From contig CAMYXL010000001.1 in assembly GCA_947303255.1 (NCBI GenBank), positions 18,231 to 82,230 of the forward strand: a stretch of 64,000 nt of DNA. The letters are read 5' to 3'. This DNA is from an uncultured Clostridia bacterium. Its GTDB lineage: Bacteria; Bacillota; Clostridia; Saccharofermentanales; Saccharofermentanaceae. Positions 25,788 to 60,252 of this stretch are shown in pieces. Within the stretch, counting starts at the first letter, position 1, and every line of letters starts with the position of its first letter. The position numbers were made by a program, and so were the translations under genes. Under the pieces are notes generated by a model. The model was not told the DNA's origin, searched no databases, and saw nothing but the letters and a program-made list of their open reading frames with translations.

Positions 25788-26183
25788 TCAAGAAATACTT
25801 AAGAGGACGTCGCCTGTGTTTACGGAAGCACCCTTGGATGTGAGAACCTGAGCTACTGTACCGGAACATGGTGCGTAGATCTCGTTCTCCATTTTCATAG
25901 CTTCGAGGATGCAAACGAGGTCGCCTTCGTTTACTTTAGCGCCGACTGCAACCTTAACGTTAAGGATAGTGCCCGGCATTGGTGCTGTAACAGGAGTTGT
26001 ACCTGCCTGAGCTGTAGCAGCAGGAGCTGCAGCTGGAGCAGCGGCTGCAGGTGCGGCAGCAACAGGAGCTGCGGCAACAGGAGCAGGAGCTGCCGTAACG
26101 GTTGTGGTCTTAAGAAGATTAGCTTTGCCCTTCTCTACCTCAACCTCATATTCTTTATCGTTGATTGTAACTTTATAGATCAT
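25788..26183 (-). CDS. Biotin carboxyl carrier subunit of the decarboxylase
   Basis: Ala/Pro linker, VTAPMPG, biotinylation motif EAMKM. Confidence 0.93.
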
Positions 26184-26197
26184 TTGAGGTATCTCCT

Positions 26198-26578
26198 TTA
26201 CTTGTTCTCTACGAGAGTGATGGATTTGAATACGAGCTCAGAAAGAGGAATGCCCGTATTGTCGCTTACGATAGCCATGATCATAGCAGCTGTCTTCTCA
26301 TCGCAGCCCTTAAGCTTAAGGCTTCCGGAAGAGAACTCTTCCTCAGCAACAGGAGCTGCAGCAGCTTCAGTAGCAGCAGGCTTTGTACCTGCAGGCTCTT
26401 CCTTCTTGGAAGTTACCTTCTCGATACCGCCGATGATGAATGAGAAGATCTTGATCGCAACACAGATGAGCAAAAGGACACCGAAAACGACAGCAATGGT
26501 AAATCCGGCTACAGCAAGTGCCTCAGGCAATGTTGCCTGATCTGGACCTGTGAGCAGATAAACAGCATAGTTAGTCAT
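26198..26578 (-). CDS. oadG: Decarboxylase gamma/delta subunit (OadG family)
   Basis: Single TM ([14 protein letters not shown]), Ala/Pro linker, AAMIMAIVS segment; position within the operon. Confidence 0.85.
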
Positions 26579-42142: not shown

Positions 42143-43657
42143 TCAGCCTACTTTTTCTGCGCTGACTATGGTGCCTCTGTCTATTACTGCACCTTCATCA
42201 AATTCAGCAATGATAGTGTACAAAGAATCCTGGTAGAAAGCGAATCTCACAGTACAATCCTCATATTCGTACACGTAATAAGCATAATCATCACTTATCT
42301 CCGGCGTAGTATCTGCTCCTGCGTTAGCAACTAAGTCTTCAGGTGTCATAGTGAGAGGGAACTCAAATTCGATCCCATCTTCCCATGCATCGATATAATC
42401 AGAATTGAAACAGACACCGCATACTACGCAGTCAATAATGGTTCCGTCTGTTTCTGCTCTTGCGATAAAGAATATCGGACAACTCCAATTCTTTCCTTCA
42501 GGACGATCCGTTTCTTCGTCCATATCAAACACGTTTAAGACCACCACATCTCCGGTCTCTACCGGATCATCAAGCTGGTTGTCATAAGCAAAGTCTCTGT
42601 CCAGCATGTATGCACCTACATAGCATCCGGTATCAACAAGATCCTGAACGGTGGAATTATTCATGGTGATAACATCTCCGTTGACCTTTACTTTCATGTC
42701 GTCGAAGTTGACATAATTCCTGCCGTCAGCACCAAAATCAAAATCTGTTCCGACTCTGTCCAGATTTCCTCCAGCTTCGTTGGATTTCGTTTTTGACTCA
42801 TCATCAGGATCGATCTCAGAGATCTCGTTTCCTGCATTCTTTTTGATATTCTCTTTCGAAAGAGGATCCTCATCTTTGTGTGTAGCGTAATAAACAATAC
42901 CTGTTGTGGCGGCGCCTGCAAGTACGATTGCGGCAATAGTAATAATGATCTTTTTCATGGCAAATTCTGTCCCTTTCGTTATTGCTTTGGAAGCAAGTTT
43001 TGAACCGGCTGCTTTTGTTGCAGCCTTAGTTGTTGATGCGGACAGATTTGAAAGTGAAGACGGCATTGGCTTAAAAGGCACCTGCTCGGCTTCTTTTGTA
43101 AATAGTTTCGTTAAGAATGGTACGACCATATAAAGTTTTGTGTCGTTGTCTTTTTCATATTTTTCGACCTCCTTCTTGATTTTTTTCTTGGCAGAATTAA
43201 TGCGCCACGATACTGTTCCTTCAGGAATATTGAGAGCTTTAGCGATCTCTTTGGTACTCATCTCGTCAAAGTAAAACAGGATGAGTGTCCTACGGATATC
43301 TTCAGACAAAGAATTGTTGATGATATCCATGATGATCTTGCGCATCTCGGCAGACTCGATTATTGAGTCAGGCAGGAAATCCTCGGGAACAGTCTCGACT
43401 GTGTCAAAGAACTCGTCATCAACGTTATCCGTTTTCGTTCTGGTAATACGATTCAGGGATTTGTTGGCTGCGACCTTTTTAAGCCATGGCAGAGTCTTAC
43501 TCTTATCCTTAATGCTGTCGTATGAGTTAAACAGAGAGATAAAAGTGTCCTGTACGATGTCCTGTGCATCATCTTCATTTTTCAGAAGAGAAAATGCTGT
43601 CCAGTACACCGCGCGATAGGCTTCGTTATAGATCTTTTCCAGTTCTTTGTCGGTCAT
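42143..43657 (-). CDS. ECF sigma factor fused to a TM helix and an acidic extracytoplasmic domain
   Basis: Sigma2 region (DAQDIVQDTF, LPWLKKVAANKSLN), sigma4 region (LFYFDEMSTKEIAKALNIPEGTVSWRIN), TM segment KKIIITIAAIVLAGAATTGIVYYA, and an Asp/Glu-rich C-terminal domain of about 240 aa. Start taken at ATG 43657 after GGAG. Confidence 0.88.
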   Translation of the reverse strand: MTDKELEKIYNEAYRAVYWTAFSLLKNEDDAQDIVQDTFISLFNSYDSIKDKSKTLPWLKKVAANKSLNRITRTKTDNVDDEFFDTVETVPEDFLPDSIIESAEMRKIIMDIINNSLSEDIRRTLILFYFDEMSTKEIAKALNIPEGTVSWRINSAKKKIKKEVEKYEKDNDTKLYMVVPFLTKLFTKEAEQVPFKPMPSSLSNLSASTTKAATKAAGSKLASKAITKGTEFAMKKIIITIAAIVLAGAATTGIVYYATHKDEDPLSKENIKKNAGNEISEIDPDDESKTKSNEAGGNLDRVGTDFDFGADGRNYVNFDDMKVKVNGDVITMNNSTVQDLVDTGCYVGAYMLDRDFAYDNQLDDPVETGDVVVLNVFDMDEETDRPEGKNWSCPIFFIARAETDGTIIDCVVCGVCFNSDYIDAWEDGIEFEFPLTMTPEDLVANAGADTTPEISDDYAYYVYEYEDCTVRFAFYQDSLYTIIAEFDEGAVIDRGTIVSAEKVG

Positions 43658-43975
43658 TTTTTCTGTCTCCTTTTTGTCCGCATCTACTCTATAGACACAT
43701 GACAAAAGAGATTTCTTGGGTGGTTCGAAAAAATTTTTACTCTTGGATTTTATCATCATTGCCGGAGCGTTGTCTAAACATATGTGGAAACGCGTTGCTG
43801 TTGCGAGCTTAGAAAGTGATCCGTAAGGCTTTAAATATCAAGGATATTTTGGTGAATATTGTCATTATATTGATTATAATGTGGGCAATTTCAGAAAGTT
43901 TTTTCGAGCAAATGAAACAAAAGGCATACCATTATCTGTCTATGATGAGTATCTAAAACGTATGAGGAGAAAACT

Positions 43976-47289: not shown

Positions 47290-47314
47290 TCGTAAGATCT
47301 AACGCTAACTATTT

Positions 47315-47344
47315 GGGGGAGCCTGAGCGGCTCCCTCATTTTTT
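47315..47344 (+). terminator. Intrinsic terminator
   Basis: GGGGGAGCC-tgagc-GGCTCCCTC followed by ATTTTTT. Confidence 0.75.
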
Positions 47345-47549
47345 GGACTTTTTTGGTGAGTCAGGCGGTTTTGGTCCAAGATTTCTTGGACCATTTGGTG
47401 CCCGGAACGTGTTTTGGTCCAAGTTTGATGCTGATCCGGCAAGGTGAAGGGGCAATTTGAACGGTAACTTGGACCAAATGGGTGAGAAGTGACGATTTGG
47501 TCCAAGAAAAGTTGGACCATTTTGCCTGCGCGGAGACATTTGGTCCAAG
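47343..47549. repeat. Array of four TTGGACCA-N21-TGGTCCAA inverted-repeat units
   Basis: Units at 47343-47379 (first core degenerate, TTGGACTT), 47386-47422, 47469-47505 and 47512-47548; gaps between units of 6, 46 and 6 bp. Confidence 0.8.
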
Positions 47550-47640
47550 AATGCCGTGAAGTTGTTATAGTTAAGCCGTTATTATATAATCTCGGTGTAA
47601 GTTCGCCGCCTTTTTCGAGCGGCAGGAAAAAGAGGTTAGT

Positions 47641-58424: not shown

Positions 58425-59315
58425 ATGACAAACATCAAGATTCATCAGTGCCCGTCCTGCGGCGGCAATCTCACCGTAGACAACGACAGACAAATGTATC
58501 ATTGCTCTTTCTGCGGCAGCTCTTTCGATTATGAGTATTTTCGAGAAGAACAGGCTCATGAGATGGGCGAGAAATACTTAAGCAGAGGCGAGTATGCCGC
58601 AGCTATCGATCTTTATAAGTTCGTATTGGATAAGAATCCGCATGATTTTATTTCTCTCAGGGGTCTGATGCTCGCGTCGGCACGCCTGAAGGAGATGAAG
58701 GAACTGACCTCCAAAGTCGGCACTGAAGGTTTCTCATATGACACAAAGCAGGTTGATTTCATCTGCGGCAGTGCTTCTCCGGATGACAAAGAATATTTTG
58801 ACGGTATGTCAAAGATTTATTCCGATATTAAGTCCGTCTCGGCCCTGGTCGAAGAGCAGAATGTTCTTCGTAAGGAAAAGAGGAGGATCGAGGACAAGAT
58901 CCATCTCGAGCTCAAGAGCCGTGAAGAGTGCAGTGTCAAAGACAGATACGGAACCGGACATGATCCGATAAAGGCTTTTATAGCGATGACCGCTATCTGC
59001 GGATTTTTCCTTCTGGTAATCCTCGTCCTGGTGATAGTAGGACTTTTTACGGAAGATTGGGTAGTCGGAATCGGTTTTATGCTCCTTCTTCTGGCGGTCC
59101 CGTTGACAATCATCGATTTTTTGATAGTATTCCCGCGCTTCAAGAAGGCAAGGGAGATCGATGCCAGGATCGGTAAATACGGCATCGAGTCCGGCAAGCG
59201 TCAGAGAAGGATCAACGAGCTGGGCGAGCTGATCGACAAGGAGTCTTCAGCCATCAAGCATGCGTGCTCCGACCTTATGAAGAAGGACACAAAGATCATG
59301 AATGAACTCAAATAA
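58425..59315 (+). CDS. Hypothetical protein: Zn-ribbon, helical/coiled-coil region and two TM segments
   Basis: CPSCGG...CSFCG at the N-terminus, a TPR-like helix pair, a coiled coil and two hydrophobic segments. ATG at 58425 after GGAG. Confidence 0.65.
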   Translation: MTNIKIHQCPSCGGNLTVDNDRQMYHCSFCGSSFDYEYFREEQAHEMGEKYLSRGEYAAAIDLYKFVLDKNPHDFISLRGLMLASARLKEMKELTSKVGTEGFSYDTKQVDFICGSASPDDKEYFDGMSKIYSDIKSVSALVEEQNVLRKEKRRIEDKIHLELKSREECSVKDRYGTGHDPIKAFIAMTAICGFFLLVILVLVIVGLFTEDWVVGIGFMLLLLAVPLTIIDFLIVFPRFKKAREIDARIGKYGIESGKRQRRINELGELIDKESSAIKHACSDLMKKDTKIMNELK

Positions 59316-59320
59316 TATAA

Positions 59321-59345
59321 GTGACTGTCTCATTGAGGCAGTCAC
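59321..59345. terminator. Hairpin after the hypothetical gene
   Basis: GTGACTGTCTC-att-GAGGCAGTCAC. Confidence 0.6.
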
Positions 59346-59360
59346 TAAATATTTGTAGGA

Positions 59361-59592
59361 ATACTAACCTGATCGGTCTTTTTTGTAAATAAGGTTAGTA
59401 TAAATCGGTCTTACAAATAATCGAGTACTAACCCTTTTTTCGAAAACATGCATGATGGTAAGTGTTTTTCTACATGATCGAAAATAAAATACTAACCTAA
59501 AACGCGATAATTGCCATATTGATTAGTACGACTTCAGATTTCCGGCGAAATATACTAACCTTTTGGCAGATTTTCACGATTTTGATCAGTAC
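59361..59592. repeat. Phased array of four 63-64-bp units, each TACTAACC-N23-GGTTAGTA
   Basis: Forward cores at 59362, 59426, 59490 and 59553; reverse cores at 59393, 59457, 59521 and 59584 (the last three degenerate). Confidence 0.75.
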
Positions 59593-59659
59593 TCAACAGG
59601 ATGAATCTGAGGGAATCGTGTCTTTTTTGAGACAACCCTCAGTTTTTTTCGAAAATAAA

Positions 59660-59733
59660 AGTCAAAAAAAGTCAAAAAGCTATTGACAAACACTGAAAAC
59701 GGGACGATAATACTAATATCAAAGAAAGTCAAA
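59660..59733 (+). promoter_or_regulatory. CtsR-repressed sigma-A promoter
   Basis: CtsR box AGTCAAA-AAA-AGTCAAA (59660-59676); -35 TTGACA (59683); -10 GATAAT (59706, 17-bp spacer); second box TATCAAA-GAA-AGTCAAA (59717-59733), with further GTCAAA copies downstream. Confidence 0.88.
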
Positions 59734-59781
59734 GTCAAAATCAAAGTCGAATTTGACCAAAGCAGGAAGGGAGGAACAGAT

Positions 59782-60252
59782 GTGGCTAGACTCGTTGATG
59801 TTATAGAGTTAATGATCAAAGAGATGCTGGACGAGAACAACGGCAAGGCGACCATAAGCAGAAGCGATCTCGCTGAGAGAGCGAACTGCGTGCCTTCGCA
59901 GATAACCTACGTGTTGTCCACCAGATTCTCGTCAGGTAACGGATATATAGTCGAGAGCCGAAGAGGCGGCGGCGGACAGATCACCATCAGGCGAGCGAAG
60001 ATCATCAGCAAGGGAGAGTACCTGCAGTCGGTGCTTAACGCGGTAGGCAATGATCTTACTCAGCAGCAGGCGAAGATCTATCTGACCAATCTCGTATCGA
60101 GCGGTGCGATCTCACCTCATGAGGCGACAGTCGTTATGGCGACGGTGTCGGACAGAGCTCTGGTCCATGTTGATTCCGATATAAGGTCTGTGGTAAGAGC
60201 CGATATTTTCAAGAATGCTTTGGTAAGTCTGATGTTAGACGGTGCGAGCTGA
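59782..60252 (+). CDS. ctsR: Class III stress gene repressor CtsR
   Basis: MARLVDVIE, LAERANCVPSQITYVLSTRF, GYIVESRRGGGG. GTG start after GGGAGG. Confidence 0.95.
   Translation: MARLVDVIELMIKEMLDENNGKATISRSDLAERANCVPSQITYVLSTRFSSGNGYIVESRRGGGGQITIRRAKIISKGEYLQSVLNAVGNDLTQQQAKIYLTNLVSSGAISPHEATVVMATVSDRALVHVDSDIRSVVRADIFKNALVSLMLDGAS

Follow-up and report, generated by a model that had tools for sequence, protein, structure and literature searches.

A phased array of inverted 10-bp cores upstream of ctsR, probably a REP/BIME/BOX-like hairpin-module repeat of rumen Clostridiales

We analysed a 64,000-nucleotide stretch of DNA (the window; contig CAMYXL010000001.1, positions 18,231 to 82,230) from an uncultured Clostridia bacterium, in which a first-pass annotation had noticed a phased array of alternating inverted cores ahead of ctsR and had proposed three readings of it: a cooperative platform for binding protein at the ctsR promoter, a REP-like array, or a TIGR-like dual-spacer RNA array. 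The array lies within an element of ~295 bp, E1, which would begin with a leader of 14 nt, continue with four modules of 64 bp and end in a hairpin tail, and which is probably a lineage-specific, non-coding hairpin-module repeat resembling REP, BIME and BOX sequences and belonging to a small family in rumen Clostridiales. Of the three earlier proposals the REP-like one gained ground, as E1 is an insertion, its presence and unit number are polymorphic, the family occupies unrelated intergenic sites beside terminators and its arms are conserved over its spacers, while the platform and the TIGR-like array fared badly for the reasons given below. The number of units varies (four, three, one or none) by recombination or slippage between identical cores, and the cores are conserved far beyond the spacers. 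Together, the extragenic, terminator-adjacent site, the inverted arms, the variable modules and the patchy distribution argue for a small interspersed hairpin repeat. Throughout, E2 denotes the sibling element at locus L140, L-numbers designate metagenome or genome loci and X-numbers sequencing runs.

A non-random array of alternating inverted cores

Four + strand copies of TACTAACC start at positions 59362, 59426, 59490 and 59553 of the window, with periods of 64, 64 and 63 bp, and are embedded in forward cores of the form [AG]TACTAACC[TC] (59361-59370, 59425-59434, 59489-59498 and 59552-59561). These alternate with inverted cores, which lie 23 nt past each copy of TACTAACC and the first of which is exact (AAGGTTAGTAT, 59391-59401) and the other three degenerate (ATGGTAAGTGT, 59455-59465; TTGATTAGTAC, 59519-59529; TTGATCAGTAC, 59582-59592). 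In an E1 module, a 10-bp arm and the inverted arm enclose a 20-nt loop, and a linker of 22-23 nt follows; the arms form Watson-Crick pairs at 10/10 positions in unit 1, 7/11 in unit 2 (with two further G:T pairs), 8/11 in unit 3 and 6/11 in unit 4. The periods and the alternation are exactly as first described, and the array indeed lies upstream of the ctsR promoter (TTGACA-17-GATAAT, 59683-59711). The intervening sequences had been called dissimilar, and the spacers inside E1 agree at chance level only (3-10 of 23 positions), with the qualification that ATCGGTCTT is common to the loop and the linker of unit 1. The arithmetic that had placed all cores on one face of the helix holds as well, the core distances of 31, 33 and 64 bp corresponding to about 3, 3 and 6 helical turns.

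The pattern is genuine and not random. Of the six exact TACTAACC/GGTTAGTA sites of the 64-kb window, five fall in the array, with 1.1 expected window-wide, and the sixth (47634) is merely a ribosome-binding site followed by ATG. Permutation had been proposed as a check of the phasing, which turned out not to be expected by chance: six such sites were reached in 0/100 shuffles of the window, and the probability that three spacings are equal within 1 bp, given four sites in the 466-bp intergenic region, is 1.6e-4. A chance origin is therefore excluded by the shuffle and phasing statistics. The predicted folding energy also lies far under that of shuffled sequences, at z = -5.5 for E1 and z = -8.6 for E2.

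A sibling element, an insertion and varying unit numbers

A search for such arrays in other genomes had been suggested, and we scanned 185,579 species, each represented by one genome, for three phased copies of TACTAACC. The scan returned 84 loci, comprising 83 CRISPR arrays or tandem repeats in which TACTAACC merely occurs, without inverted cores, and one true sibling, E2, in L140, a Clostridiales metagenome-assembled genome (MAG) from yak omasum. E2 has four units at exactly 64 bp with arms of the form [AG]TACTAACC[TC], 20-nt loops and inverted arms that are intact in 4/4 units. It lies between the 3' ends of convergent genes, one encoding a 524-aa secreted or lipoprotein-like protein and the other belonging to a GntR/ABC-ATPase/ABC-2-permease operon; by Pfam, its neighbours are LUD, MatE, GntR and ABC-transporter genes and genes for proteins without Pfam matches.

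E1 and E2 align in register over their full length, including the tail (AGGRAATCRTGTC..TTGAGACA..TTTTCGA), and their forward cores are identical in 8/8 units. Loops and linkers are identical at 77/166 positions (46%), compared to 47.7 +/- 5.6 positions in composition-matched shuffles, 0/20,000 of which reach the observed value. Diagonal pairs of units score above off-diagonal pairs, as illustrated by unit 1 (13/23 loop and 12/25 linker positions identical) and by the loops of unit 4 (14/23). The spacers were therefore not independently acquired, since they are homologous between E1 and E2. As judged from this alignment, the four modules differ from each other but match one-to-one between copies, and the family appears to propagate as a four-module block.

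At the E2 site, alleles with four units occur at L171, L172 and L176, and alleles with a single unit at L173-175, all on contigs encoding the same, 100% identical permease. The one-unit form arises by an exact 192-bp loss between TACTAACCTAA repeats, which leaves the leader and arm of unit 1 joined to the unit 4 loop and inverted arm. A three-unit variant is present in another run (joint 268 to 333), and in relatives whose permease is 76% and 65% identical the site is empty, with terminator hairpins only. In metagenome contigs placed on L140, contig depth over the E2 array is 3-5x that of the flanks, and loose ends of E2 enter other contexts (...TAGTATCGGA joined to TAAATGAATCATGTCAC... in four runs, and another unit 2 loop in two runs); the tail motif recurs in E2 and in a third copy known from such loose ends. 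Contig depth and loose ends thus point to further copies in these communities. Assemblies break at or near the arrays at L177, L170 and L184-189.

The sequencing runs that best match L140 (X30-X32) lack the upstream gene and the array of the window and contain a ctsR that is ~95% identical, from which it follows that E1 and E2 reside in different, related species. The same runs led us to reject the notion that E1 and E2 share one genome, which their co-occurrence at similar depth had suggested. A link of the element to the zinc-ribbon protein encoded upstream of E1 was rejected as well, as the gene upstream of E2 encodes the unrelated 524-aa secreted protein, a protein near E2 shares the ribbon motif only, and orthologues in L069, L168 and L001 occur without an array.

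These three loci, which have the same gene order as the window and whose upstream proteins are ~59%, 56% and 50% identical to that of the window, also reveal what E1 interrupts. In each of them the terminator stem of the upstream gene stands directly before the T-run, TCGAAAA and the CtsR boxes, and there is no array. Because the stem is joined directly to the T-run in these relatives, ~295 bp of the window are extra, and this segment (about 59347-59642) is an insertion wedged between the upstream terminator stem and its T-run. None of 79 metagenomic loci encoding CtsR relatives that we compared contains at least two TACTAAC motifs. The features of the region, all on the + strand, are as follows.

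58425..59315, +: upstream gene, whose 296-aa product has transmembrane segments and, at the N terminus, a zinc ribbon (open reading frame list; weak Pfam Zn_Ribbon_TF match), given as context only
59320..59346, +: hairpin 1, the upstream gene's terminator stem, directly after the stop codon (12-bp stem, AGTGACTGTCTCA TTG AGGCAGTCACT)
59347..59360, +: leader of the inserted element, AAATATTTGTAGGA, 14 nt, absent from L069, L168 and L001
59361..59424, +: unit 1, arm ATACTAACCT (59361-59370), 20-nt loop, inverted arm AAGGTTAGTAT (10/10 pairs), linker
59425..59488, +: unit 2, arm GTACTAACCC, loop holding TTTTTTCGAAAA, degenerate inverted arm ATGGTAAGTGT, linker
59489..59551, +: unit 3 (63 bp), arm ATACTAACCT, loop, degenerate inverted arm TTGATTAGTAC, linker
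59552..59592, +: unit 4, arm ATACTAACCT, loop, degenerate inverted arm TTGATCAGTAC
59593..59649, +: tail, motif GAATCGTGTC and TTTTGAGACA within a long hairpin (predicted by folding; inverted repeat), then T7 (59643-59649)
59658..59751, +: native ctsR control region, outside the element, near-identical in array-less relatives
59658-59680 and 59725-59751, +: CtsR boxes
59683-59711, +: ctsR promoter TTGACA-17-GATAAT (-35 at 59683-59688, -10 at 59706-59711)
59782-60252, +: ctsR, followed by mcsA, mcsB and clpC

In the window, hairpin 1 is followed by AAATATTTGT in place of a T-run; its orthologues are GGGACTGTCC..GGGCAGTCC with a T-run (L069) and AGGACTGTTCGG..CGGACAGTCC with a T-run (L168). In the minimum-free-energy fold the leader pairs with 59409-59419, with which it forms an inverted repeat, and so lengthens the hairpin of unit 1. 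The tail hairpin has an outer stem (59607-59613/59636-59642) and an inner stem and, together with T7, is predicted to form an intrinsic-terminator-like end on the + strand; T7 itself is probably the native T-run of the upstream gene. The gene order pssA-psd-cysK-zinc-ribbon gene-ctsR is kept in relatives, and the zinc-ribbon protein of the window is 44% identical to a protein of Butyrivibrio sp. AE2032. The organism, a member of the Clostridiales, stems from metagenomes of the ruminant gut. Downstream of E1, two sets of CtsR operator repeats (AAAGTCAAA N AAAGTCAAA) flank the -35/-10 elements, one on each side, and this control region is almost invariant across relatives whose intergenic DNA further upstream cannot be aligned.

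Allelic variation at the ctsR site extends from the nearest relative to strains almost identical to the window. In L164-166, whose upstream protein is 86% identical, the orthologous site carries a single unit, ATACTGACCT-N19-AGGTCAGTA (3452-3490 in L165, also in L164 and L166), with a loop 2 nt shorter than in E1. The inverted arm of E1 unit 4 and the tail are homologous to this single unit, and the sequence past it (CA.AC.GGATGAA) is homologous to that past E1 unit 4. Its arms harbour a compensatory change (TACTGACC/GGTCAGTA), in that a forward A-to-G is matched by an inverted T-to-C, and the cores accordingly covary from AACC/GGTT in the window and L140 to GACC/GGTC in L165. On either side the unit is bordered by TTTT(G)CTCGAAAA/TTTTCGAAAA, which may be a target duplication; TTTTCGAAAA recurs inside E1 unit 2, a recurrence of uncertain significance. 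Strains near-identical to the window keep the array with few single-nucleotide polymorphisms and, in the strain in run X10, a 2-nt loop deletion. In run X1, a bovine gut metagenome, a 92-nt contig joins 59375 to 59620; the 244-bp deletion crosses a 10-bp direct repeat (GTCTTTTTTG) and coexists with the full form at similar depth.

Known repeat families and competing readings

E1 resembles REP, BIME and REPIN sequences in being extragenic and near gene 3' ends or terminators (E1 after a terminator stem, E2 between convergent genes), in having short, conserved inverted arms that alternate at regular spacing around weaker spacers and have hairpin potential, and in varying in cluster size and in presence between close relatives. 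In BIMEs, REPs alternate in orientation at regular spacing (PMC2817692), and a REPIN is made up of two conserved REPs in inverted orientation with a less conserved spacer between them (PMC3116915). By definition, however, a REP is an imperfect, GC-rich palindrome some 20-40 nt long whose head, GT(A/G)G, is conserved (PMC2817692), and E1 stands outside the strict REP family because it has no GC-rich self-palindrome and no GTAG head. Its copy number appears low, not >100 per genome, no RAYT was identified among the 40 open reading frames (ORFs) of the window that were scanned, its host belongs to the Clostridiales, and its four modules and tail seem to travel together as a fixed block. The scanned ORFs encode xylan/arabinan enzymes, rpsG-fusA-tuf, a penicillin-binding protein, two-component systems, glycosyltransferases, pssA/psd/cysK and the ctsR operon.

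The likeness to BOX (boxA-boxB(n)-boxC), RUP and SPRITE elements lies in their occurrence in Firmicutes, in a modular, non-coding make-up with a variable number of internal modules and predicted stem-loops, and in enrichment downstream of genes and between convergent genes, where some serve as terminators or 3' extensions. BOX elements are modular with a variable number of modules, favour sites downstream of genes and are sometimes terminators or operon 3' extensions (PMC3049150), and the leader, the tail and the variable module number of the E1/E2 family (4/3/1) match their terminal and internal modules. BOX modules are conserved over their whole length, however, whereas E1 modules are conserved only in the 10-bp arms and differ from each other, and there is no sequence similarity between the two.

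If E1 is such a repeat, the functional part would be the conserved inverted arms, with the outer TACT...AGTA fixed and the inner positions free to co-vary, and these may work by folding into a hairpin when the DNA or RNA is single-stranded, or they may be a recognition site. In the latter case a trans-acting protein encoded elsewhere would recognise them and copy the element, as with REP/REPIN/BIME sequences and Y1 transposases or with BOX-type repeats, and the arms would be kept by selection for propagation or homogenised by gene conversion. For the host, the element would be mostly a passenger with a probably incidental effect: on the + strand, four stem-loops and a terminator would be appended to the upstream transcript at its 3' end, and the element would supply a stem for the pre-existing T-run, such that termination ahead of ctsR is kept and read-through kept off. 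For the control of ctsR, E1 would be dispensable.

Several observations weigh against a REP/BIME/BOX-like repeat. The E1 arms are AT-rich 10-mers that are not self-complementary, enclose 20-nt loops and have no GTAG/GTGG head. Changes in the E1 arms affect 0/32 forward and 5/32 inverted positions (Fisher p = 0.053), an asymmetry of perfect forward and decayed inverted arms that is odd for a pure hairpin model and unexplained by a pure two-half-site model too, and the stem mismatches comprise six G:U and five A:C, with no net strand bias. We found neither a target-site duplication nor a terminal inverted repeat around E1 or E2, the E1 ends (AAATATTTGTAGG... and ...GACAACCCTCAG) not being inverted repeats of each other, and among the scanned ORFs there is no Y1_Tnp or other transposase. 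Confirmed copies amount to one in 64 kb of this genome and one assembled in the sibling MAG, and the data on extra copies come from metagenome contigs that mix strains and species. Finally, arrays with different cores lie just upstream of the ctsR promoter in several relatives, which may indicate a site-specific role.

This last observation can also be read in favour of a phased DNA platform, on which a dimeric or oligomeric protein (a regulator, a nucleoid-associated protein, or DNA gyrase as at BIME-2) would wrap or bridge ~250 bp and affect the ctsR promoter or supercoiling. Such a platform would account for forward cores that are identical in all eight units of E1 and E2 when spacer identity has dropped to 46%, for the 64-bp spacing strictly held in both elements and for the position of cores 31, 33 and 64 bp apart on roughly the same helix face; moreover, REP/BIME elements are known protein binders (PMC2817692). 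We nevertheless consider it unlikely, because relatives with the same promoter and CtsR boxes have no array, the array is deleted or cut to one unit in coexisting strains, and E2 lies between convergent 3' ends at a promoter-free site. Also, loop length differs by 2 nt in L165 and in the X10 strain, the related arrays have periods of 54, 62 and 75 bp, the inverted cores of E1 are decaying, and no candidate binding protein is encoded nearby. A cooperative platform serving the ctsR promoter, as first proposed, is hence poorly compatible with these data.

It is rather unlikely that the TACT...AGTA arrays are the cis-acting component of a so far undescribed system of Lachnospiraceae-like Clostridiales from the rumen, in which a trans-acting protein encoded elsewhere recognises the conserved stems. 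That protein would then be a hairpin-specific transposase or recombinase or an RNA-binding protein, and the arrays, instead of being inert repeats, would represent either a new class of modular mobile elements targeting terminator-promoter gaps, including, in many lineages, the one before ctsR, or a new stem-loop RNA array.

Quite unlikely is a structured non-coding RNA gene or RNA array, CRISPR/TIGR-like or small RNA-like, in which four + strand stem-loops provide stems as handles for a protein encoded elsewhere, and loops and linkers as guides or decoys. The predicted terminator-like tail hairpin with T7 on the + strand and the similar tail of E2 are consistent with this, as are the folding z-scores, the compensatory arm change in L165 and the stem mismatches of E2, 4/4 of which are G:T on the + strand; the mismatches in E1 units 3 and 4, however, are A:C on the + strand, and it is the stems that are conserved here, whereas small RNAs usually conserve loops. 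Stem-loop TIGR arrays exist and have poorly conserved sequence, and they need two 14-nt spacer intervals between the stem arms (bioRxiv 10.64898/2026.09.09.750476). TIGR arrays in general have alternating 8-12-nt repeats, 9-nt spacers (up to 12) and a 36-nt unit (PMC12045711), and E1 shares with them two alternating repeats of 8-12 nt, two classes of variable segments, a rho-independent terminator end and, with the variants, stem-loops.

The differences prevail. The variable segments of E1 measure 20 and 22-23 nt rather than 9-12 nt and its unit 64 nt, its repeats are inverted copies of each other, and its flanks ACC[TC] and [ATG][AGT]GG are neither box C nor box D, whereas the edge and loop repeats of TIGR share UG...CCA (box D, box C). 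TIGR arrays adjoin a Nop-domain tas gene, whereas the scanned ORFs contain no Nop-domain, Cas, transposase or recombinase domain, in line with the initial remark that no Nop-domain or cas gene is seen here, and neither gene lies beside E2. The homology of the E1 and E2 spacers, which were hence not independently acquired, further argues against guides. With CRISPR arrays, to which most other matches of the three-core scan belong, E1 shares the ~64-bp period, yet it has only two 10-nt arms instead of a 23-47-nt repeat, no cas genes, four units in both full copies and spacers that are homologous between copies. A comparison of the spacers with phage and plasmid sequences had been advised; against 50,697 phage and 72,556 plasmid records (blastn, 11-nt words) it gave no match below E = 1. 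In viral contigs, the forward-inverted-forward pattern had 0 matches, and the single-unit pattern had 30, none with a 23-nt gap or in arrays, all being ordinary long palindromes. Rfam searched at a permissive threshold over 58800-60200 returned noise only, and a tRNA/tmRNA scan returned nothing. In four rumen metatranscriptomes, the few contigs fall on cysK, the upstream gene, ctsR (beginning near 59734-59740, past the predicted promoter), mcsB and clpC, and none covers 58983-59733, a weak negative given how sparse these sets are.

Very improbable are site-specific recombination sites, in which the cores would be crossover or binding sites of a shufflon-, invertase- or res-like recombinase that mediates programmed inversion or deletion. 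The precise 4-to-1 and 4-to-3 deletions with junctions in the cores would fit, alternating orientation would permit inversions that preserve the architecture, and res (Tn3/gamma-delta), shufflon sfx and parC/parS iterons likewise consist of phased inverted half-sites that each bind a dimer. Nonetheless, 0/12 DNA runs on E1 or E2 show strand-switch joints (weak evidence, as contigs hide rare variants), the X1 deletion uses an unrelated 10-bp repeat, which points to ordinary microhomology-mediated loss, and segments of 20-23 bp are too short to invert between adjacent sites. Unlike res, sfx and par sites, E1 has no adjacent recombinase or partition gene (the scanned window ORFs include no recombinase), is chromosomal, intergenic and polymorphic in presence, and has half-sites 20 bp apart with unconserved intervening sequence. 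A neutrally decaying 64-bp tandem duplication, for which the tandem units of equal length might speak, or a chance pattern is effectively refuted, as cores and spacers should then erode alike, yet the spacers are at chance level with TACTAACC exact in 4/4 units, the same cores and period occur at an independent locus and species, and the shuffle and phasing statistics exclude chance.

Other arrays of the window and its relatives, and implications

Arrays of alternating inverted cores other than those of E1 and E2 are found in the following ctsR-upstream regions of relatives.

L034 2079-2330 (also in L033): three copies of TACCGACA-N23-TGTCGGTA, period 75 bp, then a tail terminator
L052 2278-2390: doubled TTCTACCT/AGGTAGAA, period 62 bp, abutting the CtsR boxes
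L014 2261-2384, L024 23-266, L022 1968-2300, L037 317-430, L017 2197-2307 and L039 488-554: alternating inverted-core arrays

Arrays occupy 2/26 intergenic regions of the window, and a similar share of the ctsR-upstream regions of relatives, a sample that is biased in that its loci were fetched by CtsR. A special association of arrays with ctsR is not demonstrable, as this share is near the background rate and the loci were ascertained by CtsR.

The second array of the window (47343-47552) has an unrelated short core, the quasi-palindromic TTTGGTCCAAG/CTTGGACCAAA (TTGGWCCAA), which occurs seven times and in both orientations, and includes two 22-bp near-perfect palindromes (47372-47393 and 47498-47519) and a 126-bp higher-order repeat. 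It directly follows the terminator hairpin (47314-47338) of a DUF4214 gene and lies upstream of the promoter of another DUF4214 gene. Like the other core families in comparable intergenic regions of relatives, it speaks for the repeat reading of E1. In a further relative, whose zinc-ribbon protein is 68% identical to that of the window and which is probably the species carrying E2, a 112-bp tandem repeat with many GTACAGTT..AACTGTAC palindromes is present in ~2.5 copies downstream of the zinc-ribbon gene (L184 2960-3376, L186 1390-1853, L187 3950-4193). These repeats are followed by alternating AAATCCAGTA/TACTGGATTT cores with a 54-bp period, and every contig of this relative ends inside or just before them. 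The related-looking array with a 54-bp period has TACTGGAT/ATCCAGTA cores, and several such cores of other arrays have the outer TAC[CT]...[AG]GTA in common.

Two features elsewhere in the window were also recorded. A cluster of direct repeats (AACAGGAG/AGGAGCTG motifs, 25989-26352) lies in an 811-bp stretch between oxaloacetate decarboxylase beta and alpha-like genes, and is probably part of a repetitive linker or of a small gene missing from the list. On the - strand, the first ~200 residues of a 538-aa ORF (42143-43759) comprise extracytoplasmic function (ECF)-type sigma-70 regions 2 and 4, and a long C-terminal extension without a Pfam match follows; the product may join a sigma factor to a sensor or anti-sigma-like domain.

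The small interspersed hairpin repeats of Proteobacteria (REP, BIME, REPIN) and of streptococci (BOX, RUP) have been studied well, and to our knowledge, from the literature we searched, such repeats have hardly been described in rumen or gut Clostridia. The family to which E1 belongs is unusual in being a fixed block of four different modules that retain nothing but their spacing and their 10-bp inverted arms, and it is seen varying between 4, 3, 1 and 0 units within and between closely related strains. Our analysis also calls for caution, in that relatives should be checked before phased arrays next to promoters are read as regulatory platforms or guide arrays. If an enzyme that copies the element were found, the partnership of hairpin repeats and transposases would extend to Firmicutes, and the family would offer a strain-typing marker for rumen metagenomes.

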